This document shows, piece by piece, positions 1-10,241 of a stretch of DNA of 10,558 bases (its first letter is position 1; each line of letters opens with the position of its first letter). Both the position numbers and the translations under genes were made by a program. A model generated the notes under the pieces. The model ran no database searches. It saw nothing but the letters and a program-made list of their open reading frames with translations, and was not told where the DNA came from. This stretch comes from Pseudomonadota bacterium (GTDB lineage: Bacteria > Pseudomonadota > Gammaproteobacteria > Methylococcales > Methylomonadaceae). The stretch is taken from contig JBDLTP010000031.1 of assembly GCA_039805765.1 (NCBI GenBank), positions 1 through 10,558 of the forward strand. The letters run 5' to 3'.

Positions 1-117
1 GCAAAAGCAGCTATTTACCATGTAGCTAATACTTCTGGGAATGATATTGTCGCTGGAGAAGTTGAGTTGATTGGTGTTACTACAGGTGTTGTAGCCGCAG
101 TTGACTTTGTAGCTTAA
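1..117 (+). CDS. 3' end of an upstream gene (last 38 codons, ...AKAAIYHVANTSGNDIVAGEVELIGVTTGVVAAVDFVA*); product not identifiable
   Basis: Frame 1 is open from the window edge to TAA at 115-117, followed by a strong intrinsic terminator. It is absent from the ORF track because it has no start in the window. The Gly/Val/Ala-rich tail vaguely resembles C-termini of large secreted repeat proteins; this is an impression only. Confidence 0.45.
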   Translation, partial: AKAAIYHVANTSGNDIVAGEVELIGVTTGVVAAVDFVA

Positions 118-169
118 CCCTCAAGCCTCAACCCCATGAGCGTCTAATACGCTTTGATTGAGGGAAGAA

Positions 170-204
170 ACCGTCGTTGTAGAAATGCAGCGGCGGTTTT
201 TTTA
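170..204 (+). terminator. Rho-independent terminator
   Basis: 10-bp stem ACCGTCGTTG (170-179) / CAGCGGCGGT (188-197) with two G-T wobbles and an 8-nt loop, followed by a T7 run. Confidence 0.75.
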
Positions 205-276
205 TGGGCGTTTGGGTGTGCTGTGGGGTGTGGTATGATGTGCGAAAGTAATTTATGTATTTTAAGGAATTAAGCA

Positions 277-525
277 ATGCCTAGTTTACAAGTACGTTTA
301 GATGAAAAAGAAAAGCAAGAAACGTTTTCTATTTTGCACCAACTCGGCGTAACGCCTGCGCAAGCTGTGAGAATGTTTTTTGCAGAAGTAAGGGCAACAC
401 ATTCACTGCCTTTTGCCATTGATTGCATTCCCAATGCAAAAACAAAAACAGTACTGAACGACACGACCAACTATTCAGAACATTTTGACAGTGTGGATGA
501 TTTGTTTGCAGATTTAGAAAAATAA
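277..525 (+). CDS. dinJ: RelB/DinJ-family antitoxin (type II TA)
   Basis: 82 aa. N-terminal ribbon-helix-helix-like MPSLQVRLDEKEKQE...GVTPAQAVRMFF...LPF and C-terminal DDLFADL resemble E. coli DinJ. AAGGA lies upstream of the ATG, and the stop overlaps the toxin start (ATAATG). Confidence 0.85.
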   Translation: MPSLQVRLDEKEKQETFSILHQLGVTPAQAVRMFFAEVRATHSLPFAIDCIPNAKTKTVLNDTTNYSEHFDSVDDLFADLEK

Positions 526-812
526 TGCGTTCTCTTATTTACAAAAAATCATTTAAAAAGCAGTTTAAGCTAATGCAAAGTCGCGGAAAAGAGTTGGCAA
601 AATTGAAAACTGTCATTGAGATATTAGCAAATGATTTACCCATTCCGATAAATTATAAAGATCACGCGTTAACAGGTAATTTTGCCAGTTTCCGTGATAT
701 TCATATTGAACCTGATTGGATTTTGATTTATCAAAAACGCGAAGCTACAAGTGAATATCCAGCTGGAATATTATCACTTGAGTTAACGGGTACACATTCT
801 GATTTGTTTTAG
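525..812 (+). CDS. yafQ: YafQ-family mRNA interferase toxin (RelE superfamily)
   Basis: 95 aa. YKDHALTGNFASFRDIHIEPDWILIYQ...LTGTHSDLF closely parallels E. coli YafQ YKDHPLQGSWKGYRDAHVEPDWILIYK...RTGTHAALF. Translationally coupled to the antitoxin. Confidence 0.9.
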   Translation: MRSLIYKKSFKKQFKLMQSRGKELAKLKTVIEILANDLPIPINYKDHALTGNFASFRDIHIEPDWILIYQKREATSEYPAGILSLELTGTHSDLF

Positions 813-936
813 TTCGCTAAACTTAATCAAACGTTAACCCACCACGCTCGCCATCATTTTCCAAAGTTAAGAAATGATCTGGTGTTTAAATGTGTAACGC
901 GCAACACCTGTTCTTCTCTTTATTTCCGGCACTTAG

Positions 937-1024
937 TTTGAACGCTAGGGCTTCTGTTTTGCATTTGAGCATGGTAAGAAATAGCTGAGTAGCTGGACTT
1001 AATGTTTTTAGCTTTGCTTGGCAC
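937..1024 (+). repeat. Repeat family S, copy 1 (TTTGAACGCTAGG...TTGCATTTGAGCATGGT...)
   Basis: About 90-bp segment that aligns by eye at roughly two-thirds identity with 1446-1543 (shared blocks TTTGAACRCTAGG, TTGCATTTGA, ATGGT, GTTTTT, GCTTGCT). Confidence 0.5.
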
Positions 1025-1240
1025 TTTATTCAATAGATTGATTTTTTAAATTATTATCAGAAATGGGGTCTGTAACCATAAAAAAATAGTGCTGCGGAAA
1101 TTTTATATAGAGTACTTTTCTACTTTCGGTGGTGATTTTGCACCTATAGTAGTGTGAAAAGTGGGGGTTGCTTTGCTGTTGTGATTGCGTTGCTTGAATG
1201 GGAATCATGCTGGTTAGTGATTGGTGGATGAAAATTAATC

Positions 1241-1286
1241 AAACAGGACGTTGTCATAACGTCGTGTTGTAACATCGTGCTGTTTT
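1241..1286 (+). repeat. 46-bp repeat R1: AAACAGGACGTTGTCATAACGTCGTGTTGTAACATCGTGCTGTTTT
   Basis: Member of a 7-copy family, all 46 bp with no indels and the same orientation. Differs from R7 at 4 of 46 positions. Outer 6-bp inverted ends AAACAG/CTGTTT; internal tandem units GTTGT(N0-3)AAC-RTCGT. Preceded by TAATC. Confidence 0.9.
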
Positions 1287-1330
1287 GTCATGTTAACGCG
1301 CAACACCAGATCCTCTCAATCAAAATAATC

Positions 1331-1376
1331 AAACAGATCGTTGTCATAACGTCGTGTTGTTTCGTCGTGCCGTTTG
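1331..1376 (+). repeat. 46-bp repeat R2: AAACAGATCGTTGTCATAACGTCGTGTTGTTTCGTCGTGCCGTTTG
   Basis: Same family and orientation as R1, 90 bp downstream (start to start). Preceded by TAATC. Confidence 0.85.
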
Positions 1377-1445
1377 GTTGAGTTAACCTTAACTCATTGT
1401 CATTCCTGCATTGTATTCATCCAGTACAGTAAGTCTGGCGTTTTA

Positions 1446-1543
1446 TTTGAACACTAGGCTATCAAAATTGCATTTGATTATGGTCAGCAAGAGCAACATA
1501 GCAGGGCACGTTGTTTTTTAAAAACTTGGGCTTGCTGTTTGCG
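1446..1543 (+). repeat. Repeat family S, copy 2
   Basis: Aligns with 937-1024 (see that entry). A weaker third fragment (GTTGCATTTAGGTGCAG) lies near 2124-2140. Confidence 0.5.
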
Positions 1544-1614
1544 CAAAACGACAGGACTTGGAAAAATCAAAGTGCTTGATGCTGTTTTTATGGAATCAAC
1601 ACGTTCTGTTTGGA

Positions 1615-1821
1615 GCAAACCAAGTGCCATAAAAAACTCACACACATATAGTAAATAATTAAGTTCAAGTTGATTTTGTTATTTCATATCAATTAGAAAG
1701 AAAGAACAAAGGCAGGGTGATTTGGAAAAATCACCCTTGCTAGCATGCAGCGTAGCTGCTGCTCCTTATTCCAGCAAAACAAGTTCATTCTGATTTGTTA
1801 AAACAACAGCACTTGATTTGT
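1615..1821 (+). repeat. Noncoding element copy A (207 bp): promoter-like box, hairpin, conserved box 2; candidate sRNA or small-ORF locus
   Basis: Box 1 AAAAAACTCACACACATATAGTAAA at 1631-1655 (TATAGT at 1647-1652, possible -35 GTGCCA 17 bp upstream). 9-bp hairpin AGGGTGATT/AATCACCCT at 1714-1737. Box 2 CCTTGCTAGCATGCAGCGTAGCTGCTGCTCCTT at 1735-1767. Ends are GCAAACCAAGTGC (1615-1627) and GCACTTGATTTG (1809-1820), an imperfect inverted repeat. About 97% identical to copy B. Confidence 0.6.
1745..1801 (+). CDS. Candidate small ORF in element A (18 aa, MQRSCCSLFQQNKFILIC)
   Basis: The ATG lies inside conserved box 2. Both A-versus-B substitutions within it (1771 C/T, 1774 G/A) fall on third codon positions and are synonymous. 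There is no recognisable Shine-Dalgarno sequence, so this is very tentative. Confidence 0.25.
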   Translation: MQRSCCSLFQQNKFILIC

Positions 1822-1823
1822 TC

Positions 1824-1866
1824 AAACAGGTCCGCTCTAAATAATTTGAAGTGCTTGATGCTGTTT
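1824..1866 (+). repeat. R-like hybrid site between elements A and B (AAACAGGTC...AAGTGCTTGATGCTGTTT)
   Basis: Shares the first 9 nt (AAACAGGTC, as in R4) and the last 7 nt (GCTGTTT) with the 46-bp family, but the interior is unrelated. Its 3' 18-mer AAGTGCTTGATGCTGTTT recurs at 1570-1587, one tandem period upstream. Confidence 0.4.
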
Positions 1867-1894
1867 ATTGAATGCAATATGCCTTATTTTTTTT

Positions 1895-2101
1895 GCAAAC
1901 CAAGTGCCACAAAAAACTCACACACATATAGTAAATAATTAAGTTCAAGTTGAATTTGTTATTTCATATCAATTAGAAAGAAAGAACAAAGGCAGGGTGA
2001 TTTGGAAAAATCACCCTTGCTAGCATGCAGCGTAGCTGCTGCTCCTTATTTCAACAAAACAAGTTCATTCTGATTTGTTAAAACAACAGCACTTGGTTTG
2101 C
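1895..2101 (+). repeat. Noncoding element copy B (207 bp), tandem to copy A with a 280-bp period
   Basis: Box 1 at 1911-1935, hairpin at 1994-2017, box 2 at 2015-2047. Perfect 13-bp terminal inverted repeat GCAAACCAAGTGC (1895-1907) / GCACTTGGTTTGC (2089-2101). Confidence 0.6.
2025..2081 (+). CDS. Candidate small ORF in element B (18 aa, identical peptide to copy A)
   Basis: Same frame and peptide as 1745-1801 despite two nucleotide differences. No clear RBS. Confidence 0.25.
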   Translation: MQRSCCSLFQQNKFILIC

Positions 2102-2188
2102 TCAAATGACTTGGCTTTGTTTCGTTGCATTTAGGTGCAGCTGTCATTGTCTGATTGAGTTGTCTTCCTTTTTTTTATGGATAAAAGC

Positions 2189-2234
2189 AAACAAGTTGTT
2201 GACGTAACGTCTTGTTGTAACATCGGACTGTTTT
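2189..2234 (+). repeat. 46-bp repeat R3: AAACAAGTTGTTGACGTAACGTCTTGTTGTAACATCGGACTGTTTT
   Basis: Same family and orientation. Confidence 0.8.
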
Positions 2235-2263
2235 TTTTAACGCCACAAATAGCAATTTCAATC

Positions 2264-2309
2264 AAACAGGTCGTTGTTGTTTCGTCATGTTGTAACACTG
2301 CGTTGTTTG
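2264..2309 (+). repeat. 46-bp repeat R4: AAACAGGTCGTTGTTGTTTCGTCATGTTGTAACACTGCGTTGTTTG
   Basis: Same family and orientation, and the most diverged copy. Ends 12 bp from the stop codon of the polymerase-like gene. Confidence 0.75.
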
Positions 2310-2321
2310 CACGTATCCAAT

Positions 2322-3740
2322 TTAAGGCGTCCGGTTATATTTCGTTTCCTTTAAAAACCAGAATGGATTGCTTGCTTGTATTGCGCTATCAATTTGCAGT
2401 TTAATTGATGGAGATAATTGATCTTTAAGGACAATAGCGTCATGTACGTTTGCTAGGATCGTCAAATTATTTGTGTTTGCGTAGCTGCGAACAATGTTCA
2501 TTACTTCAGTTTCGGCACTTTGATAAAGATAAGCAAGCAGCTTTAAACGTTTAAAAACGCTTTCTGTATCCCTTAAAAAGGAATAGCTTAATATATAAGG
2601 TTGATTTGCTTTGACCATATTGATAATAGTGTCATTCAATATTTTCTGTTCGGCTACAAAATCAATAATTATTTGAGATTGCAAAAATGTATCGCGTTCA
2701 ACGTCATCTTTAAATATCTCTCCAATAGCTTGCCGGCATTGATTTCCTTGCTGATCAAAATACATGCCCGCTGAGCGCCTTGCACCAAAGTTCAATGCAG
2801 TCATCGCATCCTTAATTAGCCCAATTTGTTTTTCATCGTTGTAAAAGCCATCAGTAAATACATCGGCTCTAATAGCGTCAATCAGCACGGACTTATTGCT
2901 CCAGTATTGATGGCACTGAGGGAAAATGGATTGAATGCTACCGGATAAGTTGTTTTGATTGATGTAATCTTGTGCAAAGCCCAGTTTCCATGCGACTACG
3001 CTACTGCGCATATCGTATTCCCAGCAGTCACCAAGCATCGCTTCACGCAAGTCTTTACGGATATTTTGAACGCTCAAGCCTTCATAATAGGTACGTCCAA
3101 AATCGCTGTGTTTTTTCTTTTGATAATAGATGTTATTTTTCCAACTTGCGGCAGCCGCAATTCGTTTTGCTTGCAAGTAAACGGTTCTATCCTTAATGTT
3201 GAACTTGATATTTTGTGCTAGCAGATTAGCAAAGGGTTGAATGAAATTGTTTACCGACTCAACATCAACCTCGCAGCAATAATAGTCCGTATCAATTTCT
3301 TGCTGGCTGAGCTTATGAAAATTAGGGTGTAATTTGGTAAATGCTGATTGAGGATCAAGTCTATCATCCACATCGGTTATTTTAATGCGTGCAGTGGGTT
3401 TAACAAGCGATGGGCCTTTATGTGATCCGTGTTTTTGACCTTCTTGCTCCTTATGGATTAATTTCAAGTTGTTTTGTTCTAGCCAAGCGTGCAAGCGTAT
3501 AGATTTAGAACCCATTTGCGGTGTGTTGTTTTGTAAGTCATGTAAGTAGATGCCATACAAACCCAAATTGATATTTAATGAGTAATTTCCTCTCAATTCT
3601 GCTTCATCCAGTGCTTGTTCAAGTTTTTTTGTGTAGCTAGCCAAAAGCTTTGCATTTGAACGAACTGCGTTTGGTTTTTTAGGAAATGCAGCTTCTAGTG
3701 CAGCTAGCACGCTTGGATCAATAATTTGGATTTGAATCAT
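2322..3740 (-). CDS. Divergent minimal family-A (Pol I-like) polymerase homolog, with no recognisable exonuclease domain
   Basis: 472 aa. By-eye alignment to Taq/Klenow: FGRTYYEGLSVQNIRKDLREAM ~ TGRLSSSDPNLQNIP...IRRAF; WEYDMRSSVVAW ~ motif A LDYSQIELRVLA; IKDAMTALNFGA ~ motif B RRAAKTINFGVLYG; YQSAETEVMNIV ~ QGTAADLMKLAM; LANVHDAIVL ~ motif C LQVHDELVLE. Motif B to motif C spacing is 124 aa (122 in Taq). The N-terminal ~230 aa are unassignable. Confidence 0.75.
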   Translation of the reverse strand: MIQIQIIDPSVLAALEAAFPKKPNAVRSNAKLLASYTKKLEQALDEAELRGNYSLNINLGLYGIYLHDLQNNTPQMGSKSIRLHAWLEQNNLKLIHKEQEGQKHGSHKGPSLVKPTARIKITDVDDRLDPQSAFTKLHPNFHKLSQQEIDTDYYCCEVDVESVNNFIQPFANLLAQNIKFNIKDRTVYLQAKRIAAAASWKNNIYYQKKKHSDFGRTYYEGLSVQNIRKDLREAMLGDCWEYDMRSSVVAWKLGFAQDYINQNNLSGSIQSIFPQCHQYWSNKSVLIDAIRADVFTDGFYNDEKQIGLIKDAMTALNFGARRSAGMYFDQQGNQCRQAIGEIFKDDVERDTFLQSQIIIDFVAEQKILNDTIINMVKANQPYILSYSFLRDTESVFKRLKLLAYLYQSAETEVMNIVRSYANTNNLTILANVHDAIVLKDQLSPSIKLQIDSAIQASNPFWFLKETKYNRTP

Positions 3741-3808
3741 GCAATACCTAATTGGATATGCTGTAAATGGGGCAAGTCATAGCGACAAGTTTGAGCGTTA
3801 TCGTAATC

Positions 3809-4031
3809 AAAAAACTCACACACATATAGTAAAATTATATTTTCATATAGAAAAATAATGTTGAAATAAGAAAAAATGCAGGTGAATTTCAGAAAGCAAT
3901 GCGAGCTTTAGCGAGTGTTGTTGATGAAATGAGCCTTGCTAGCATGCAGCATAGCTGCTGCTCCTTTCATTGCTTCCATTCAGAAAAGCAATCCAAGTGT
4001 CGTTGTTTTGCCTGCGTTGTTTTTTTTTTTT
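3809..4031 (+). ncRNA. Noncoding element copy C: promoter-like box 1, structured region, box 2, hairpin, T12 (candidate ~195-nt plus-strand transcript)
   Basis: Box 1 is identical to copies A and B at 3809-3833 (TATAGT at 3825-3830). Hairpin ATTTCA/TGAAAT (3886-3891/3925-3930) closed by GG/CC sits just before box 2 (3934-3966), the position held by a hairpin of different sequence in A and B. 7-bp hairpin ATTGCTT/AAGCAAT at 3969-3992. T12 run at 4020-4031. Strand is inferred from the -10 box and the T run, not proven. Confidence 0.4.
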
Positions 4032-4033
4032 AA
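3944..4033 (+). CDS. Candidate small ORF in element C (29 aa, MQHSCCSFHCFHSEKQSKCRCFACVVFFF)
   Basis: Same start and same N-terminus MQ(R/H)SCCS as the ORFs in A and B. It stays open through diverged sequence and stops at TAA 4031-4033, directly abutting the convergent stop of the 354-aa gene. No clear RBS. Confidence 0.2.
   Translation: MQHSCCSFHCFHSEKQSKCRCFACVVFFF
3999..4022 (+). repeat. Truncated R-like remnant (GTCGTTGTT-TTGC-CTGCGTTGTTT)
   Basis: The left 9 nt match R4 positions 7-15 and the right 11 nt match the R4 3' end (CTGCGTTGTTT), as if about 17 internal bp were lost. Same orientation as the family. Confidence 0.35.
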
Positions 4034-5098
4034 TTACCATCCATATACTGCGATTCGCTTTATTGGCTCGCCACGTTTATGCAGTGCAAGTTGTTCTTCA
4101 ATAAACTTCTTTTTAGCTTCCAACTTATGCAATTCAAGTCTTAATTGGAATTCGGGATCAACTGCTAGCAAATTAGCATGCCAATCTTCATCATGTGTTT
4201 TTAAGGGACTTTTATTCACACTATCCATTTTAAGCTTTGCCCATCGTCCATTCGATTCAAGTCGTCTGCGCATACATTGCCACATATAGCGATAATTGAT
4301 GTCAGGTATAGCAACTTTGTCTTTACATGGAAATTTTCCACGTGCGGCGTTTTCCATAATTAAATGAGAGTGATTAAGCATCCGGCAGGTTATATTTTCA
4401 AGTACCTGTGTAGCTTCAACCATATGATGTGGAATCCTTGTGACCGTAATATCTAAATCCGCGTATTTCTCACTCACACCTGCTTTTACGCCAAGTTTCC
4501 ATAGTGATAATTTTGGGTCGCTTGCTTTCATTAATAATAGACGAAGTGTAGTTGTAATTGATTCACAGTGAAAACGCTCACCATGTAAACTGTATTTTGC
4601 TTTAAGTGGCTCAATATAATCATTATCAATTTGTTCACTCACTGCTCTTAATATATCAGCTCGGCTGCCATCTAAAGGGACACCCAATAGCATAAAGCCA
4701 TAATGGTATCGGGCATATTTTTCTAATGCTGCTTTGCAAGCTTCAGTATCTGTAACATGGTCTTGTGGTACATAAGCTAAAGGCGTAGCTTGTAATTTGT
4801 GTACAGGCTCACCAAATAATTTGGCTTTTCCCATAAAGCTTGTCCACCAGATTCTAAATGGGAATTGATAAACATTTCCAAAATCATCATACGTTTTGCG
4901 TACTGCATCAAAGTCATCAGGCAATGCCGTTATTTCTTCTTTTGTTAATCCATCTTTAGCTGTTCGTTCTTTGTGAGCTTGAAAATATATAGGACTTAGG
5001 CGTAGATACTCGTACCAGAGCCTATATGGTTGGCTTCTTTCGTAGTGAAAAGTGCCTTTTAAGAACTCAAAACCCTCAATTTCCCATAATTCAGCCAT
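4034..5098 (-). CDS. Hypothetical protein, 354 aa (orphan; possible helix-turn-helix around LSLWKLGVKAGVSEKY)
   Basis: Long uninterrupted ORF with ordinary amino-acid composition and a weak RBS (GGTAGA). No family recognised from memory. Confidence 0.7.
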   Translation of the reverse strand: MAELWEIEGFEFLKGTFHYERSQPYRLWYEYLRLSPIYFQAHKERTAKDGLTKEEITALPDDFDAVRKTYDDFGNVYQFPFRIWWTSFMGKAKLFGEPVHKLQATPLAYVPQDHVTDTEACKAALEKYARYHYGFMLLGVPLDGSRADILRAVSEQIDNDYIEPLKAKYSLHGERFHCESITTTLRLLLMKASDPKLSLWKLGVKAGVSEKYADLDITVTRIPHHMVEATQVLENITCRMLNHSHLIMENAARGKFPCKDKVAIPDINYRYMWQCMRRRLESNGRWAKLKMDSVNKSPLKTHDEDWHANLLAVDPEFQLRLELHKLEAKKKFIEEQLALHKRGEPIKRIAVYGW

Positions 5099-5232
5099 AA
5101 ATCGATTTTATCTACCTTTTAATATAAAAATAATTTTTCGTATTCTAGCATGCGTATATTGTGTAATACAGAAAATACCATTATTTTTTTTAAAATTAAA
5201 ACTACACAAATAGCTTTAAATGGCTTACTTGT

Positions 5233-5255
5233 TAGATATAGTAAATCAATTCAAC
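5233..5255 (+). promoter_or_regulatory. Putative promoter of the 5368 gene; -10 TATAGT (5237-5242) in a box related to element box 1
   Basis: AGATATAGTAAATCAATTCAAC resembles ACATATAGTAAATAATTAAGTTC of elements A and B. Possible -35 TTTAAA about 17-18 bp upstream. It would give a ~120-nt leader containing an 8-bp hairpin GTGGTTGG/CCAACCAC (5273-5299). Confidence 0.35.
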
Positions 5256-5367
5256 TGCGTAGAATGTTTCACGTGGTTGGCAGTGACGACTCCAACCACA
5301 AGCTCTAACCACTTGCTGTTACGTTGTTGTAGCAGCAAACAATTAACTATTTATTGGAGAAATTCAC

Positions 5368-6210
5368 ATGACACAAATTGACAAAACAACCAAAGCGGCA
5401 ACAGCACAATCAGTAATGGCTAAATTAGATGATTTAGTTATACAGCGCGAAGCGTTCCAAGCGGAATACGACAAAGTTAACGACACCTTATTTGATTTGT
5501 TAGCTGAGTGCTTGGAAGTCTATTTGACAACGAAAGGTGGCAAAGCGGAGAAAAATGTTTTAGAAGCCATCAAAAGCGATTTTGCAGCACGTTCAATTGA
5601 AATTGGACGTCAGCCAACTGTATTGAGTTTGATCGTTCGCTATGTGTTTATTGATGATAAAAAACATGGTCGCCGTATTCAGTCCTATGTACGTGCACTA
5701 TCTTACGCAATGCAATCGGGTGCTTCGCCAGCTACTTTTGCTGATTACGTTAAGAGTTTTGGTGGCATTGAAGAAGTTGTGTCAACGCAAGGTCCCAAGC
5801 CAGCGACCATTCTTAAACGTGACACGCTAAAAGCACAAGTATCAGTTGTTCAAAATGAATTACCTGATGCTCAAGTGCTTGCTACTGTTGCACCATCGCA
5901 CTTAGTTAAGCCAGAAGAAACGGGCGAATATACGTTGTTAATTGGTAAAACACTGTTGTCGGGTGAAACAGAAGTGTTAGCGGTTGTACCAAAAGCAACT
6001 GATGCAATGATCAAGCAAGCAATTGCCAAAATCGCTGATGCTGAAATTGAATTTCAAAAATTGCAATTAGCATTACTTGCTGCTCAAGCACCAGCAGTAA
6101 CAGCTACTATCGCATCAGTTCCAGTTGTTACAACTGTAATTGAAGCTAATGTTGATACTGAGGCTGAATCTGCTAACGATACGACTGATTTAGACAGTAT
6201 CGCAGCTTAA
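5368..6210 (+). CDS. Hypothetical protein, 280 aa (helical N-terminal part; Ala/Val/Thr-rich, acidic C-terminal tail)
   Basis: Good RBS (GGAG 8 nt upstream of the ATG) and a long ORF. No family recognised. Confidence 0.75.
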   Translation: MTQIDKTTKAATAQSVMAKLDDLVIQREAFQAEYDKVNDTLFDLLAECLEVYLTTKGGKAEKNVLEAIKSDFAARSIEIGRQPTVLSLIVRYVFIDDKKHGRRIQSYVRALSYAMQSGASPATFADYVKSFGGIEEVVSTQGPKPATILKRDTLKAQVSVVQNELPDAQVLATVAPSHLVKPEETGEYTLLIGKTLLSGETEVLAVVPKATDAMIKQAIAKIADAEIEFQKLQLALLAAQAPAVTATIASVPVVTTVIEANVDTEAESANDTTDLDSIAA

Positions 6211-6220
6211 TTTCTCAAAC

Positions 6221-6247
6221 AAAGCGGAAGCTAATCCCTTCCGCTTT
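6221..6247 (+). terminator. Hairpin downstream of the 280-aa gene (possible weak terminator or attenuator)
   Basis: 10-bp stem AAAGCGGAAG/CTTCCGCTTT with a 7-nt loop. Only three T residues follow directly, so termination efficiency is doubtful. Confidence 0.4.
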
Positions 6248-6270
6248 AAACCCATTTTTGGAGGCTAAAG

Positions 6271-6807
6271 ATGTATAAAATATTTGAAAATATTGAAACT
6301 AATATTATTGATTTTAATGTAGGAAAAATACTCGTCTGTAAAAATGACCCTTTTTTGAGAATTAAAACATTAAAAATGCTTGCGAACTGTCAAAAAATTA
6401 AAGAAATAGAACATAATTGGAATGATTATAGTAATACTGAAGAGTTTAAACAAAATAGATATATCAATCTAGCTTATAGTGCAATTGGTGAAAATGAGAG
6501 TGAAGATTTAAGGATTTTTAAGGTTGATAATTCGGCTACATCACAACAGTTGGTAACGACAAACTATTTCGTTAACGCACTTGAATTTGATGAAAACTCT
6601 TTTAAGCATTTTACACACTGTAAATATTTATTAAATGAATCTCAAAATTTTAAAGAAATATTTAATGATAATTTTGATTGTTCCTATCCTCAATTGGCAA
6701 AGAATAAAAAAAGCGAAATAGAGTATTACTTAGATGATTTTGAAAATAAGCTATGTAATTATTATACACAACAATTGAACAGCTACCATTTGAATAATAA
6801 ATGGTAA
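6271..6807 (+). CDS. Hypothetical protein, 178 aa, AT-rich paralog 1
   Basis: RBS GGAGG 7 nt upstream. Shares a core with the next ORF: FKVDNSATSQQLVTTNYFVNALEFDENSFKHFTHC versus FKVDDSATSKLIIYTGNVIGALEFDEPAFIDFVHC. Both end in KW. Confidence 0.7.
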   Translation: MYKIFENIETNIIDFNVGKILVCKNDPFLRIKTLKMLANCQKIKEIEHNWNDYSNTEEFKQNRYINLAYSAIGENESEDLRIFKVDNSATSQQLVTTNYFVNALEFDENSFKHFTHCKYLLNESQNFKEIFNDNFDCSYPQLAKNKKSEIEYYLDDFENKLCNYYTQQLNSYHLNNKW

Positions 6808-6859
6808 TTGATAAATTTAAAATAAAACATTTTAAGTTAACTTTTTTGAGGATTTTACT

Positions 6860-7348
6860 ATGAATATTGGAAGAATATTGTTCTTTAAAGATGAAAATAA
6901 CGATATTGATATTAATGAGCTAAGAATAAATCTTTCGTGTAATGAAATAGTAGAGGTTCAGTGGATTAAAAAATATCTTTATCAATGCTGTATTTCAATC
7001 GAATCTATGTACGATTTTGATGATTACAAAGTTTTTAAGGTTGATGATTCTGCAACTTCTAAATTAATAATCTATACAGGAAATGTAATTGGTGCACTTG
7101 AATTTGATGAGCCAGCTTTTATAGATTTCGTGCACTGTATACAGCTAAAAGTAGTTAACAGTTTTTTAAATAATGTTGATAATTATATGGATTTATTACA
7201 GAGTCATCCTTTTGATTCAATCCATGTCGATAGACCTAATGAATTGATAGAAGAGCTTAAAGTGAATTTAGTCAATTTATTTTATACACCAAATTTAATG
7301 GAAGACCCTGATGTACGTTTAAAACGTCATTTAAGTTTAAAATGGTAG
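6860..7348 (+). CDS. Hypothetical protein, 162 aa, AT-rich paralog 2
   Basis: RBS GAGGA upstream. Paralogous to 6271-6807 and followed by a strong terminator. Confidence 0.7.
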   Translation: MNIGRILFFKDENNDIDINELRINLSCNEIVEVQWIKKYLYQCCISIESMYDFDDYKVFKVDDSATSKLIIYTGNVIGALEFDEPAFIDFVHCIQLKVVNSFLNNVDNYMDLLQSHPFDSIHVDRPNELIEELKVNLVNLFYTPNLMEDPDVRLKRHLSLKW

Positions 7349-7371
7349 TTCATTTTGTGTAAGTTCTGATG

Positions 7372-7406
7372 AAAAGCCGTTGCTCTAAATGAGTGACGGC
7401 TTTTTT
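7372..7406 (+). terminator. Rho-independent terminator
   Basis: Stem AAAAGCCGT (7372-7380) / ACGGCTTTT (7396-7404) with a 15-nt loop and a T6 run. Confidence 0.75.
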
Positions 7407-7469
7407 GCGTTTACGTAAAATATCGCTGCTAATAACTATTGCTCGGCGTTCCATTCCTCACTCAATCAA

Positions 7470-7501
7470 TCTCAAGTGCTTGCCAAATTAAACACTTGAG
7501 A
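7470..7501. other. 9-bp perfect inverted repeat TCTCAAGTG-N14-CACTTGAGA
   Basis: Seen directly. It carries the CAAGTG/CACTTG core also found in the terminal inverted repeats of elements A and B, and AAGTGCTTG as at 1570 and 1849. Confidence 0.4.
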
Positions 7502-7564
7502 TGTGCCATCTTAAAAATAAATTCCTATTTCTTATTTAAAACAATCAATTACAGAAAAATATTT

Positions 7565-7610
7565 AAACAAGTTGTTGTCGTAACATCGCGTTGTAACATC
7601 GTACTGTTTT
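7565..7610 (+). repeat. 46-bp repeat R5: AAACAAGTTGTTGTCGTAACATCGCGTTGTAACATCGTACTGTTTT
   Basis: Same family and orientation. Confidence 0.85.
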
Positions 7611-7650
7611 ATCGTTTCATCAAAATTACTGCATGCTTTGTTATCATCTC

Positions 7651-7696
7651 AAATAGAGCGTTGTCGTAACGTCGTGTTGTAACATCGCGCTGTTTT
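7651..7696 (+). repeat. 46-bp repeat R6: AAATAGAGCGTTGTCGTAACGTCGTGTTGTAACATCGCGCTGTTTT
   Basis: Same family and orientation. Confidence 0.85.
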
Positions 7697-7770
7697 TGTA
7701 AAATGGGATAATATGTTGAATTTTAAATGGACTTTCTTATTAATAAACAGATAGTTGTATCAAAATGATA

Positions 7771-7816
7771 AAACAGGCCGTTGTCGTAACGTTGTGTTGT
7801 AACATCGTGCTGTTTG
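7771..7816 (+). repeat. 46-bp repeat R7: AAACAGGCCGTTGTCGTAACGTTGTGTTGTAACATCGTGCTGTTTG
   Basis: Same family and orientation. Lies 54 bp from the stop codon of the recombinase gene. A short partial start (AAACAGATAGTTGTATC) lies at 7745-7761. Confidence 0.9.
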
Positions 7817-7828
7817 CATGATGTAACG

Positions 7829-7859
7829 AAAAGCACTGCCATTTTCAAAACAGCAGTGC
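7829..7859 (-). terminator. Possible terminator of the recombinase gene
   Basis: On the minus strand, a GCACTGC/GCAGTGC 7-bp stem with a 13-nt loop is followed by TTTTC. The T run is short. Confidence 0.4.
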
Positions 7860-7869
7860 ACACATGGCA

Positions 7870-8436
7870 TTAGATCAACGCCACCGCTTGACGTTTCATA
7901 TCATCATTTACATCAATATAGCGCTGTGTGGTAGAAATACAAGAATGGCCGGCAAGGGAAGCAAGTACACGAACGCTAACGCCTTTCGCTGCTAACGTGG
8001 TAATGAACGTGCGTCTGCCGGAATGTGAACTTGCGCCATTTAAGCCCGCGCGTTTGTAGAGCCAGAAAAAATATTGCGCAAGCGTATTCGCAGTAAAGCC
8101 TCTGCGTTTTTGCGTAGTGAAAAATGGCTCGGTTGGATTAACGCGTGTTAACTCCTTTGCGTAGCTCTGCAACTCTTTCTGCAAGCGCTCATTTAAAAAG
8201 ACCGTGCGTTCATGTCCGCCTTTCGTTTGCGTAGCCAGTAAACGTATTTCATTTCTAACAATGCCACTTTCGTCAATTACATCGCAATAACGCAGCTGAG
8301 CCACTTCGCCTACACGTAATCCGCCAAGCGTTGTCAGTAAAAACATCGCCCGATTGCGTTTTGCGTGTTTGTCTAAAGCGATCATTGCGAGCACTTGTTT
8401 AATTTCGGGTTGGGTAAGTGTTTTAGCTTGTGACAT
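7870..8436 (-). CDS. Minimal tyrosine recombinase (catalytic domain only, ~188 aa)
   Basis: Catalytic signature present: GGLRVGE (Arg I), HSGRRT (His-x-x-Arg), LAGHS and TTQRY (Tyr nucleophile). Start chosen at MSQAKTL (ATG 8436) because GGAG lies 8 nt upstream; the longest ORF would start at 8487. Confidence 0.85.
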   Translation of the reverse strand: MSQAKTLTQPEIKQVLAMIALDKHAKRNRAMFLLTTLGGLRVGEVAQLRYCDVIDESGIVRNEIRLLATQTKGGHERTVFLNERLQKELQSYAKELTRVNPTEPFFTTQKRRGFTANTLAQYFFWLYKRAGLNGASSHSGRRTFITTLAAKGVSVRVLASLAGHSCISTTQRYIDVNDDMKRQAVALI

Positions 8437-8474
8437 GGTGTTTTGCTCCAATAGATAATAATTTGTGTGCGTAA

Positions 8475-8504
8475 AGTATATTTTCATATCTTCGCAAATA
8501 GCAA
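8475..8504 (-). promoter_or_regulatory. Putative promoter for the 7870-8436 recombinase gene (-35 TTGCTA, 18-bp spacer, -10 TATACT on the minus strand)
   Basis: Hexamers read directly from the reverse complement. Not supported by anything else. Confidence 0.3.
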
Positions 8505-8574
8505 CAAAAATTCGTTATATATTAACCACTTGAAAACACTAAGCCTTTCGATGTAAGATAATAGAATGTAGATT

Positions 8575-9093
8575 CTATTTGGTTTTGAACATTTTTAATG
8601 ACAGAAAAGAATAAGCGGATTTTGAGCTATCTGCGTCTTGCGCGTGTAAATAAGTATTCCGACAAGATTCGCTGCTTGCATCAATGCCTAAGTTTTTAAA
8701 CAACCAAAAGAAATGCTGCGTAAGTGTATTTTGAGAAAATCCGCGTTTGGGTTCTTTTTGAGTATAAAACAATGGCGCTGCTGGATTAAGGTCATTAAGC
8801 GTGGCAATGTAGCGTTGCAGTTCAATTTTAAGTCCTTTGCATATTAAAACGCTGTGGACTTGCTGGTTTTTGGCTTGCTCTGGTCGCAAATGGATTTCAT
8901 CTCGCACCTGCCCACATTCATCAAGTACATCGCCAACAAGTAATGCAGCAGTTTCTTTTACGGAAAGCCCAGCAAGTACCATAATTAAAATCATTGCCCG
9001 ATTGCGCTCTGCGTGTTTAGTGACTGCAATGCTATCAAGTGTCCGCTTGAGATCGTCGCAGGTTAATATTTTGGCTGTTTTGATGTTTTTCAT
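8575..9093 (-). CDS. Tyrosine-recombinase-like paralog, catalytically degenerate and C-terminally truncated (accessory protein or pseudogene)
   Basis: 172 aa, clearly paralogous to the neighbour (KHAERNRAMILIMVLAGLSVKET versus KHAKRNRAMFLLTTLGGLRVGEV; FFWLFKNLG versus FFWLYKRAG). However, Arg I is Ser, HSGRR is ESCRN, and the ORF ends before the GH...Y segment. Good RBS (GGAG). Confidence 0.65.
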   Translation of the reverse strand: MKNIKTAKILTCDDLKRTLDSIAVTKHAERNRAMILIMVLAGLSVKETAALLVGDVLDECGQVRDEIHLRPEQAKNQQVHSVLICKGLKIELQRYIATLNDLNPAAPLFYTQKEPKRGFSQNTLTQHFFWLFKNLGIDASSESCRNTYLHAQDADSSKSAYSFLSLKMFKTK

Positions 9094-9223: not shown

Positions 9224-9297
9224 GCCATTTCCGGTTGTCCAACCAACGCCTCTGAAACTAAAGTTATGTCACATTAACTTAGATCGGAGTACACAAC
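9224..9297 (+). promoter_or_regulatory. Conserved promoter/operator/leader, copy 1 (-35 TTGTCC 9235-9240, 18-bp spacer, -10 TAAAGT 9259-9264, palindrome 9258-9282, RBS GGAG)
   Basis: A 74-bp block repeated in inverted orientation at 10168-10241. The hexamers and palindrome are conserved while the spacer differs. Confidence 0.55.
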
Positions 9298-9738
9298 ATG
9301 GCAACATTACTTAGCTCACTTAAATTAGTTTCAGCAACACGCGACAACAAAGTTTCACCCGTATTGCAGCGCAGACAAAAATTAATCAAAAAAATTGATG
9401 AACAAATGGAGCTGGCGAAGGCGCAAGCAAACGGATCAATTTATAGTCCGACCAAATTCAAAAATATCGTTAATGCTGAAACAGGTACAAATGAGTACAA
9501 GCAAGTACCAAAACGTATTCGCGCTTGGTGGTGGAAAAACGAAGCAGGCAAATTGAATTTGGTTGTGCGTTATGGCGCACGTATTATTGAATTGGGCAAA
9601 GGAAAAAACAGCATTGAACTTGAAAACGAAGCAGCCATTTTGCCAACGCTTGAAGTAATCAAAAAAGCAGTTGAAGCTGGCGAGCTAGATGATGCAATGA
9701 CGGCTGTGAGCAAAGCCGTGTTGTTAAATCTTAACTGA
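9298..9738 (+). CDS. Hypothetical protein, 146 aa (plasmid/ICE-type small conserved protein; family not named)
   Basis: Good RBS, then a strong terminator. RRQKLIKKIDEQ...RAWWWKNEAGKLNLVVRYGARIIELGKGKNSIEL feels familiar from genomic islands, but I cannot name the family reliably. Confidence 0.7.
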   Translation: MATLLSSLKLVSATRDNKVSPVLQRRQKLIKKIDEQMELAKAQANGSIYSPTKFKNIVNAETGTNEYKQVPKRIRAWWWKNEAGKLNLVVRYGARIIELGKGKNSIELENEAAILPTLEVIKKAVEAGELDDAMTAVSKAVLLNLN

Positions 9739-9751
9739 GTTTTAAATAGCT

Positions 9752-9788
9752 AGAGCTAACGTCATTATTGGCGTTAGCTCTTTTTTTA
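9752..9788. terminator. Bidirectional rho-independent terminator between convergent genes
   Basis: 10-bp perfect stem AGAGCTAACG (9752-9761) / CGTTAGCTCT (9772-9781) with a 10-nt loop and T7 on the plus strand. Confidence 0.8.
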
Positions 9789-9798
9789 TCTGCGTAAA

Positions 9799-10167
9799 TC
9801 AATATTCACGCGGCAACATAATCACCCACATGTCACCTGTGTAACACGCGTAAAGTTTTATCACATCAAGTTCAAAATCCGTGTATTCAATAAATTGCTC
9901 AGCAAGGATGTTGTCGTTCCCATCATCCAATTTCAGCAAAGCTGTGCACGAACTTTCAGAGCGCGAAACAGTTAAATTAGCAACGATGAAAGTTTCCTTT
10001 TGCGTAAACTCCGGCAGGTAACTTGCAATTGCAGTCATAAGCCAATATGCGCCACCTTTGTCAGCAACGAACTTTGCTCCATCCGTTATTACTGTATCAG
10101 GTGTAATGCGATAGTAACGCTCTGTGCCGCTGAAGTTGTTTAATTCATTTACCCATTGTGCTGTCAT
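9799..10167 (-). CDS. Hypothetical protein, 122 aa, resembling the DUF6876-type proteins of plasmids/ICEs
   Basis: FSGTERYYR...TDGAKFVADKGGAYWLMTAI...YTDFEL matches my recollection of that family signature (F-GTE-YYR, TDG, GAYWL). The family name comes from memory and is unverified. Confidence 0.65.
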   Translation of the reverse strand: MTAQWVNELNNFSGTERYYRITPDTVITDGAKFVADKGGAYWLMTAIASYLPEFTQKETFIVANLTVSRSESSCTALLKLDDGNDNILAEQFIEYTDFELDVIKLYACYTGDMWVIMLPREY

Positions 10168-10241
10168 TTTTTGTACTCCGATTAAAGTTAATGTGAAATA
10201 ACTTTAATTTCAGACCGACTTAATGGACAACCGGAAATGGC
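10168..10241 (-). promoter_or_regulatory. Conserved promoter/operator/leader, copy 2 (minus strand: -35 TTGTCC 10230-10225, -10 TAAAGT 10206-10201, perfect palindrome ATTAAAGTTA-N8-TAACTTTAAT 10181-10208)
   Basis: Inverted copy of 9224-9297, positioned identically relative to its start codon. Confidence 0.55.

Follow-up and report, generated by a model that had tools for sequence, protein, structure and literature searches.

Seven copies of a 46-bp sequence, all in the same orientation, lie in three clusters in a 10,558-nucleotide stretch of DNA from a Pseudomonadota bacterium (contig JBDLTP010000031.1; hereafter the window), and the last of them stands next to the gene for a small tyrosine recombinase. 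This raises the question of whether the recombinase acts on these repeats, as was supposed in a preliminary description that saw here a candidate cassette or recombination platform, or whether the repeats belong to some other kind of element. We found no specific tie between the repeat and this 188-aa recombinase, for which the 46-mer does not serve as a dedicated substrate. The firmest description of the repeat is that of a lineage-specific, modular non-coding unit placed at the joints of flexible DNA, with rearrangements at its ends; its settings, in uncultured freshwater Pseudomonadota, are a genomic island with a P4-type integrase (in the window) and arrays of toxin-antitoxin cassettes. 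As to its nature, we tentatively put first a modular intergenic repeat akin to repetitive extragenic palindromic (REP) sequences, bacterial interspersed mosaic elements (BIMEs) and BOX elements, structured, probably protein-bound and acting as portable homology, although we give this reading somewhat less than an even chance. The alternatives that the preliminary description had itself listed, a REP-like intergenic repeat or iterons, come closer to the evidence than its cassette and recombinase reading.

All seven copies (R1 to R7, Table 1) were recovered where they had been placed, on the + strand and in a gapless alignment, and direct reading of the sequence confirmed that R1 and R7 differ at 4 of 46 positions. 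A search with a 25-nt core pattern, allowing at most 3 mismatches, gave 7 matches against 0.02 expected from dinucleotide-preserving shuffles. The copies are spaced at 90, 75, 86 and 120 bp, and every one of them is intergenic, mostly at the 3' ends of genes. Each copy had been described as holding two tandem units; the tandem structure stands, but the number of units is three, since re-phasing resolves the 46-mer into a row of three 13-bp units, AAC-RTCGT-GYTGT, the first of which is followed by 3 inserted bp. Tandem Repeats Finder detects the 13-bp period within R1 and R2, and the 13-mer AACRTCGTGYTGT, with at most 1 mismatch, is found 10 times, always on the + strand and always within the seven copies (0.08 expected). 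Across 33 distinct copies from the window and related contigs, near-invariant blocks (AAACA, GTTGT, TAAC, TC, GTTGTAAC, ATC and TGTTT) alternate with variable positions (6–9, 15–16, 21, 24–25 and 37–40). Two degenerate relatives had also been proposed. The one at 1824–1866 has the ends in common with the 46-mer and an unrelated interior, and its end pair AAACAG-N28-40-CTGTTT is non-random (3 matches against 0.04 expected); the one at 3999–4022 could not be substantiated.

The motif TGTTGTAAC lies within each 46-mer (for example at 1266–1274, 7674–7682 and 7794–7802) and is identical to the core of the Ter (Tus-binding) sites of Escherichia coli. The repeats might on this ground be read as polar replication-fork barriers of the Ter type, with every copy carrying the motif in the same orientation, and both the (near-)invariance of GTTGTAAC in the 33 copies and their uniform orientation would agree with this. 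However, none of the open reading frames (ORFs) in the window has a Tus/Ter match in Pfam, the bases around the 9-mer do not match Ter, and the likeness is a coincidence of a single short motif that was found post hoc; of all the explanations weighed here we hold this one to be the least probable, by any standard a long shot.

The 46-mer is the core of a larger unit of ~90 bp, made up of a head TTAACGCGCAACACC, a linker of ~25 bp, the 46-mer, and then GTCGTGTTAAC. In R1–R2 and in the copies on other contigs, this unit measures 88–91 bp and has a conserved 44-bp linker, GTCGTGTTAACGCGCAACACC-N-CTCTCAATCAAAATAATC. R1–R2 form an array of this canonical type and R3–R4 a decayed 75-bp version, while R5–R7 are part of a longer module that recurs at 88–89% identity in two related contigs (L001 and L020; we number such contigs with an L) and stands 3' of a gene of the p178 family in 4 of 4 contigs (the window, L001, L020 and L045). 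The last copy of an array is degenerate, and GTTAAC and a small palindrome follow it. In seven loci the array is preceded by a leader of ~200 bp with an almost invariant core of 70 nt, and a diverged copy of this leader is found outside the window, near the island integrase. The head of the canonical unit, GTGTT-AACGCGC-AACAC, consists of short inverted arms around a 7–8-bp spacer; its left arm is not conserved in many copies, heads occur in both orientations in L028, and the motif is present in L028 and L029, which are contigs without 46-mers. The 46-mer is without the anatomy of a tyrosine recombinase core site, which the neighboring 20-bp head motif fits better.

An exact-pattern scan of genome and metagenome contigs matched 24 loci, of which 12 were discarded as chance matches, leaving true relatives on 12 further contigs from lake metagenomes or metagenome-assembled genomes (MAGs): four from MAG Ki3-D2_bin-0182, one from Loclat_bin-03925, and seven from lake metagenomes. 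Ki3-D2_bin-0182 comprises 278 contigs, 4 of which carry the pattern; contigs were fetched only where the exact pattern matched. A 13th contig with 46-mers, L045, was reached through a look-up of the recombinase. In all relatives the copies are co-oriented, and the unit occurs singly or head to tail, in 1 to at least 4 full copies. The largest arrays are those of L017 (up to four full copies), L006 (three and degenerate ones in addition) and L009 (three before the end of the contig). The arrays neighbor HicAB, ParE-type, BrnT and Phd-YoeB cassettes, as well as a cheW-like gene, an RTX-type gene, DUF3782 paralogs and a PD-(D/E)XK gene. The 46-mer pattern had 0 matches in viral contigs. Among plasmid records, neither a megablast search with the window nor a tblastn search with the 472-aa protein encoded between the repeats returned a match, and a blastn search of plasmid and phage records with the arrays gave only two 61-bp matches at chance level.

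Comparison of these contigs showed where the DNA around the repeats changes. In L001, ~1 kb containing a D5/D6 module (see below) and a ParE-type toxin-antitoxin pair directly follows the last 46-mer, and beyond this block comes the sequence that follows R7 in the window, with the final 20 codons of the recombinase gene. L020 has two copies of the 46-mer vs three in the window, and one copy in L045 is short of about one 13-bp unit. In L008, a module M1b' continues directly into the 3' half of an R6-type copy, which amounts to a 6.2-kb deletion relative to the window; by reading, the homology shared at this fusion is 1–2 bp only. Contexts switch at two places, directly where the 46-mer ends on its 3' side (CTGTTTT|) and at a GTTAAC 4–10 nt farther on: the string of 46-mer, 4–10 nt and GTT(T)AAC is continued in five to six different ways, and at least 8 different left contexts precede AACGCGCAAC. 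In R5, R6 and L014 the right boundary falls directly after CTGTTTT, not at GTTAAC. Because contexts switch at the repeat ends and copy numbers vary between relatives, the region is recombinationally mosaic. The cassette idea therefore survives insofar as the region is cassette-like, with breakpoints at or inside the repeats, but nothing ties this mosaicism to the recombinase. Targeting of the repeats by IS66 was also considered and rejected, as the end of the insertion sequence (IS) in L014 lies 68 bp away.

A functional link between the recombinase and the repeat found no support. The 46-mers stand 3' of the recombinase gene only in contigs of the window type (the window, L020, L045, and as a remnant in L001), and most arrays elsewhere lie beside other genes, with no recombinase in view on the contig. 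Contigs with 85–87% identical recombinases have no 46-mer anywhere; in L010, where a fragment of the recombinase is 95% identical, a different palindrome takes the position of the repeat. The window belongs to a 16.5-kb contig (JGI Ga0451681_0000618) that carries a genomic island with a P4-type integrase; to the right of the window follow three small genes, a non-coding stretch of ~850 bp, the gene for a 381-aa integrase that has an Arm-DNA-bind_3 domain (PF13356), and a large surface-protein gene. The gene order of this island (integrase, DUF6876, DUF6641, a 172-aa gene, the 188-aa recombinase, variable DNA) recurs with an unrelated 167–175-aa gene in place of the 172-aa one: in lake contigs, in a MAG whose cargo comprises an EcoRI-type methylase and a GmrSD-type protein, and in Burkholderia cenocepacia, where SIR2 and HerA are the cargo. 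The 188-aa recombinase is therefore a conserved core gene of a widespread island family that reaches as far as Burkholderia. It has more than 7,900 homologs, for which 188 aa is the usual length; the catalytic Arg, His-x-x-Arg, His and Tyr can be read by eye, and there is no N-terminal DNA-binding domain. Of the two recombinase genes first described, this one is intact, and the second encodes a degenerate paralog, which we read from its sequence as dead (Table 1).

In relatives without 46-mers, a perfect palindrome, CAAGCGTTACCGCGGTAACGCTTG, is found at the 3' ends of genes, including directly 3' of the recombinase gene, and L040 and L046 have other hairpins of the form GTTATC...GATAAC 3' of this gene. 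The palindromes of L028 and L010 were considered as the true site of the recombinase and rejected: L028 has its five copies all at the 3' ends of genes, and contigs whose recombinases are 85–95% identical do not share one palindrome sequence. The hairpins of L028, L010, L040 and L046 are probably terminator- or REP-like elements of those lineages.

The sharp switches at GTTAAC invite a different recombinational reading, in which the unit is a complex resembling a phage attachment (att) site. Here, the head would be the crossover core of a tyrosine recombinase and the 13-mers, on one or both sides of it, the arm-type or accessory sites; the 381-aa integrase would be the candidate binder, the 188-aa enzyme might act on the core, and toxin-antitoxin and other modules would be captured or lost at such sites, which amounts to the platform first proposed with a different crossover point. 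Indeed, the switches keep constant either the left side (46-mer and GTCGT) or the right side (GCGCAACACC...), as in attL/attR/attP hybrids. The integrase of the contig carries the arm-binding domain; L001, the sole other contig with this integrase (as a 93% identical fragment), has 46-mers too, and lineages with other integrases (L028 and the P0003 contig) are without them. L010 has one head motif and one 46-mer ~100–130 bp past the flanking RTX-type gene, at the apparent edge of the island, and a head motif stands at the end of each toxin-antitoxin cassette. From established knowledge, three contiguous direct arm sites also recall the P' arm of lambda attP. On the other hand, 13-mers are absent from the vicinity of the integrase end, no known att site resembles head-to-tail arrays of as many as 4–5 units, and R5–R7 are without the head motif, whose left arm is often not conserved and which takes both orientations in L028. 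Moreover, neither the extra gene in L045 nor the left edge of the RelB-YafQ cassette is bounded by the motif, and close relatives of the recombinase come without the repeat. We regard such an att-like complex as unlikely, if the strongest of the rivals. Somewhat less likely still is the bolder form of this proposal, that head and triple 13-mer make up a non-integron cassette-capture site used by the 381-aa integrase and/or the 188-aa enzyme, that is, an integron-like platform with double-stranded att-type sites instead of folded attC, on which toxin-antitoxin cassettes would be shuffled in tandem. If an att-like complex were the true explanation, it would constitute a second, integron-independent route to cassette arrays.

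A further explanation would be that the 13-bp arrays are iterons, handcuffing sites or partition sites of an island replicon, bound by an initiator or a centromere-binding protein, and that the clusters flanking the module of a polymerase-like gene and its neighbor p354 govern how the excised island is replicated or segregated. Direct 13-bp units, in tandem and in three clusters of one orientation, would suit such sites; R3–R4 adjoin the polymerase-like gene at its 3' end, and 1.5 kb of DNA next to this gene is free of ORFs. The 472-aa product of this gene has a family-A polymerase fold and is elsewhere a core gene next to the integrase or DUF6641, and split iteron clusters around a rep gene are known, from established knowledge, in P1 and F. 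However, no recognizable initiator or ParB/ParR-type protein was found among the proteins searched, DnaA boxes are not enriched, and the polymerase-like homolog in L010 has a 46-mer at neither end. Copies per island vary from 1 to 7, and arrays also lie by toxin-antitoxin cassettes and the cheW-like gene, on contigs that show no island genes. We therefore consider a role in replication or partition rather doubtful, below the att-like complex in our ranking.

The leader and the head are not confined to DNA with 46-mers. A further module, D5/D6, is duplicated in the window and present as a single copy at the corresponding place in L015; it carries AAAAAACTCACACACATATAGTAA together with hairpins AGGGTGATTT..AAATCACCCT and GCAGCGTAGCTGC. 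It occurs also at 4389–5245 of L025 and at 560–1530 of L028, including the ~850-bp non-coding stretch beside the integrase, in which leader-like, D5/D6 and head modules are present and 46-mers absent. This stretch is 77% identical to its equivalent in L028. Given this conservation between the contig of the window and L028, we conclude that these modules are conserved parts of the non-coding DNA of the island, and the stretch, being conserved between island lineages, is probably a cis-acting or RNA-coding region. For the 46-mers themselves, one could think of a transcribed repeat RNA, type III antitoxin-like or sponge-type, expressed from the leader or D5, in which the 46-mers are RNA hairpins. 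The layout of a conserved leader, tandem repeats and a degenerate last copy would match this, as would the hairpin potential of the 46-mer and a TATAGT/TACTAT-like box in D5. Yet a search of the whole window against Rfam gave no match even at a permissive E-value, no convincing sigma-70 promoter was found in the leader (manual reading included), the consensus fold of nine leaders reaches only -3.5 kcal/mol, the 46-mer is without covariation, and no toxin gene lies downstream of any array. A transcribed repeat RNA is accordingly very improbable in our estimation.

Returning to the REP/BIME/BOX-like reading, we ranked it first because the unit is a modular mosaic of variable tandem number with sharp ends that are reused in many contexts, and because it is intergenic and independent of the recombinase. 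Like the members of those families, the units are short, intergenic and imperfectly palindromic: the three tandem 13-bp units of the 46-mer form an imperfect hairpin of -9.6 kcal/mol (z = -3.4 vs shuffles). The unit would thus be a small, structured, non-autonomous intergenic repeat, probably bound by a protein, that may have spread by insertion or by recombination at its ends and that could now serve as portable homology, at which adjoining gene modules are duplicated, deleted and exchanged. Several observations weigh against this. The dispersal of the unit is based on ~13 short contigs, which possibly all derive from a few flexible regions, and no REP-associated tyrosine transposase (RAYT) or IS200-type transposase was seen in the DNA read. 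Members of classical REP/BIME clusters alternate in orientation, but the copies here are all direct. Covariation in the hairpin is absent among 30 copies (0.089 observed vs 0.092 shuffled), and the pairs 8–38, 9–37 and 6–40 are frequently broken. Conserved blocks with variable spacers and tandem 13-mers fit a sequence-specific DNA-binding protein equally well or better, which is why the iteron and arm-site explanations keep a place beside the first. Finally, the conservation of the ~850-bp region of sister modules between island lineages suggests a cis-acting function rather than selfish spread. Should the REP/BIME/BOX-like reading be correct, the unit would be one more lineage-specific family of modular repeats; its use would be a practical one, as a marker of the places where an uncultured lake bacterium rearranges the modules of its island and toxin-antitoxin arrays, and it would account for the short contigs into which such regions assemble.

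Table 1. Coordinates of repeat copies, non-coding modules and genes. Positions are those of the window unless another contig is named.
Feature	Position	Strand	Remarks
R1, 46-bp core	1241..1286	+	2 mismatches vs family consensus
R2, degenerate terminal copy of array	1331..1376	+	7 mismatches; second unit TTTC, not TAAC
R3	2189..2234	+	46-bp copy
R4	2264..2309	+	Ends 12 bp before stop of polymerase-like gene
R5	7565..7610	+	46-bp copy in R5–R7 module
R6	7651..7696	+	46-bp copy in R5–R7 module
R7	7771..7816	+	Ends 53 bp before stop codon of recombinase gene (7870)
Ends-only relative	1824..1866	+	AAACAGGTC...TGCTGTTT; interior unrelated to 46-mer
44-bp linker	1287..1330	+	Holds GTTAAC (1292–1297) and head motif TTAACGCGCAACACC, then CTCTCAATCAAAATAATC
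Array end	1377..1399	+	GTTGA-GTTAAC (1382–1387), then small palindrome GAGTTAACCTTAACTC; same end in L008
R5–R7 module, 368 bp	7449..7816	+	Conserved 115-bp lead-in with hairpin CTCAAGTG...CACTTGAG, then R5–R7
GTAAC after R7	7823..7827	+	6 nt past R7; GTTTAAC in L020, L045; contexts switch here between relatives
Copy of head motif	881..908	+	GGTGTT-(8-bp insertion)-GTAACGCGCAACACC; in module M1, 3' side of RelB-YafQ cassette
Module M1b	932..1010	+	Second, diverged copy at ~1441–1492, across leader and array
Leader	1026..1240	+	Core ~1085–1155 nearly invariant, then variable GT-rich stretch
D5/D6 modules, two copies	1604..1826, 1884..2106	+	280-bp spacing; 95% identical
D5/D6 module, third copy	3808..3987	+	Upstream of polymerase-like gene
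CAAGCGTTACCGCGGTAACGCTTG palindrome copies	L028 1317, 5368, 5937, 8713, 12785; L010 ~2668–2691		L010 copy at repeat position; L010 coordinates counted in repeat orientation
188-aa tyrosine recombinase	7870..8436	-	Catalytic domain only; catalytic residues present by eye
172-aa degenerate recombinase paralog	8575..9093	-	48% identity to 188-aa protein; Arg-I Ser, His-II Glu, C-terminal Tyr region lost
472-aa divergent family-A DNA-polymerase-like protein	2322..3740	-	Fold match
354-aa protein p354	4034..5098	-	Homologous to neighbor of polymerase-like gene in L054
p178-family members upstream of R5–R7 module	Window 6271–7348; L001 1–103; L020 418–954; L045 1057–1587
RelB-YafQ toxin-antitoxin cassette	277..812	+	Block 165–858 97% identical in L016, L022, in different context

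The genes enclosed by the repeats had been described as five genes of very different composition. This is true only of two paralogs at 6271–7348, which encode 178-aa and 162-aa proteins without a family match and have 25% GC against 33–43% elsewhere; the others do not stand out. Considered as possible DNA-binding partners of the repeat, p472, p354, p280, p178 and p162 have no family in Pfam, PHROGs, NCBIfam or PADLOC. The first of these, the 472-aa protein, has 422 homologs, all unannotated. Its AlphaFold model (predicted local distance difference test score, pLDDT, of 92.6) has family-A DNA polymerases as all of its top 50 PDB matches (apicoplast Pol, Klenow, Taq and T7), with E-values down to 1e-5 and template modeling (TM) scores of 0.26–0.42, and its EYD, K...FGA and HDA motifs resemble, by eye, the polymerase motifs A, B and C. 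Homologs in other lineages adjoin the island integrase or DUF6641. The model of p354 is confident and all-helical (pLDDT 89.5), and no fold in the PDB matches it at E <= 0.001. This protein and the polymerase-like gene occur together in the window, L027 and L045, and distantly in L054; L028 has a 47%-identical homolog with no polymerase-like gene in view, and one homolog is labeled as coming from a Methylococcales MAG. As the polymerase-like gene and p354 are genes of the island-core type elsewhere, the 5.3-kb segment is not simply cargo.

Further observations concern the flanks of the repeats and the island. RelB-YafQ and HicAB-type pairs form tandem cassettes (window 121–254 and 829–1010; L016 1600–3922; L008; L022), and by reading, each such cassette has a common terminator-plus-promoter module of ~120 bp before it and a ~130-bp module with the head TTAACGCGCAACACC after it. 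The surface-protein genes that flank the island have their stop codon inside GCTTAAC (window 112–118 and, counted in repeat orientation, L010 ~142–150), and the TTAAC pentamer of these gene ends reappears at the module junctions. No tRNA was found, and direct repeats shared by the two ends of the contig, which could represent att sites of the island, were looked for without result. An inverted repeat of ~83 bp (9224–9306 and 10159–10241) extends over the upstream region and first codons of both DUF6641 and DUF6876, which are convergent genes; its core, GCCATTTCCGGTTGTCCA, is perfect over 18 nt. The enclosed segment (9224–10241) was considered as an invertible substrate of the recombinase and rejected, as the 17-bp core recurs in L028 and L040, again as an inverted pair and again upstream of these two genes; the repeat is more likely a shared operator than an inversion site. 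We found nothing relevant in the literature on DUF6641/DUF6876, on small recombinases in islands, or on GTTGTAAC. Two by-products of the analysis may matter more than the repeat itself: an island family, found from Burkholderia to lake metagenomes, with a core of DUF6641 and a tyrosine recombinase that consists of the catalytic domain only, and an unannotated family of ~420 divergent family-A DNA-polymerase-like proteins of such islands.

Finally, we compared the repeat with known systems; what is said below of BOX/BIME elements, lambda attP, P1/F iterons, IS608-type ends and Ter comes from established knowledge rather than from tool results. The statement in the preliminary description that neither site nor recombinase resembles attC/IntI, dif/Xer or a shufflon is borne out on all three counts. 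With the IntI models TIGR02249 (cutoff 265) and NF011946 (cutoff 435), the 188-aa protein scores 43.9 and 24.3 bits, which marks it as not IntI, and the 381-aa integrase 63.5 and 25.1 bits; neither has the length or architecture of IntI. A scan for attC sites (RYYYAAC...GTTRRRY, 50–150 bp, paired ends) gave 0 candidates on the 16.5-kb contig and on the L016, L022, L001 and L006 arrays, the only match being a self-complementary 80-nt stretch in L008 that scores on both strands. The region does resemble an integron in its arrays of small cassettes, many of them toxin-antitoxin pairs, with conserved non-coding separators and an identical cassette in different contexts. It differs in that there is no IntI, the cassettes carry their own conserved terminator and promoter module, and the repeats are iterons in direct order rather than folded palindromes maintained by covariation. 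Xer/dif was rejected, with XerC and XerD models at 70–75 bits against cutoffs of 330–335, a 188-aa protein without the N-terminal domain, and a 46-mer made of direct 13-mers, not an 11-6-11 dyad. A shufflon (Rci/sfx) or Fim switch was rejected on account of the co-orientation of all copies and scores of 22–32 bits with FimB-type models (cutoffs ~221). Nor is the array a CRISPR (clustered regularly interspaced short palindromic repeats), as its "spacers" are one conserved 44-bp linker in every unit and there is no cas gene, or a type III toxin-antitoxin locus (ToxN/AbiQ), as no ORF follows any array on the repeat strand and PADLOC gave no match.

The closer likenesses lie with mobile-element ends, replicon control sites, attachment sites and interspersed repeats. 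Compared to the ends of IS200/IS605 elements and RAYT-mobilized REPs, there is no Y1 transposase found here, each unit has one hairpin, and the right boundary is not always GTTAAC; shared are an imperfect hairpin and, a few nucleotides after it, a short fixed motif where the flanking DNA changes, a uniform orientation, and the possibility of head-to-tail build-up if the end motif is also the target. The iterons of P1 (incC/incA) and F (ori2/incC) likewise form same-orientation clusters of direct repeats around a replication gene with a long ORF-less region, although their units are 17–22 bp rather than 13 bp, and here arrays also lie away from the polymerase-like gene, whose product is a polymerase-like protein and no Rep initiator. 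Lambda attP differs from our units in that these are arrayed in tandem, have no 13-mers at the integrase end, lack the core in R5–R7, and are associated with the integrase on two contigs only; the two have in common a core with inverted arms and a 7–8-bp spacer beside three contiguous direct repeats, an integrase with an arm-binding domain on the same contig, and context switches at the core that resemble hybrid sites. As for BOX of Streptococcus pneumoniae, boxA-(boxB)n-boxC, and the BIME/REP elements of enterobacteria, the module repeated here is a direct repeat of three 13-bp units and its clusters keep to one orientation, unlike the alternating BIMEs, its known copies are concentrated in the island and in toxin-antitoxin arrays, and no RAYT or transposase partner was seen. 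Like those elements, however, it is a short, lineage-specific, intergenic mosaic of a few conserved modules, one of which is repeated in tandem in variable number, with the potential to form an imperfect hairpin and a frequent position at the 3' ends of genes.

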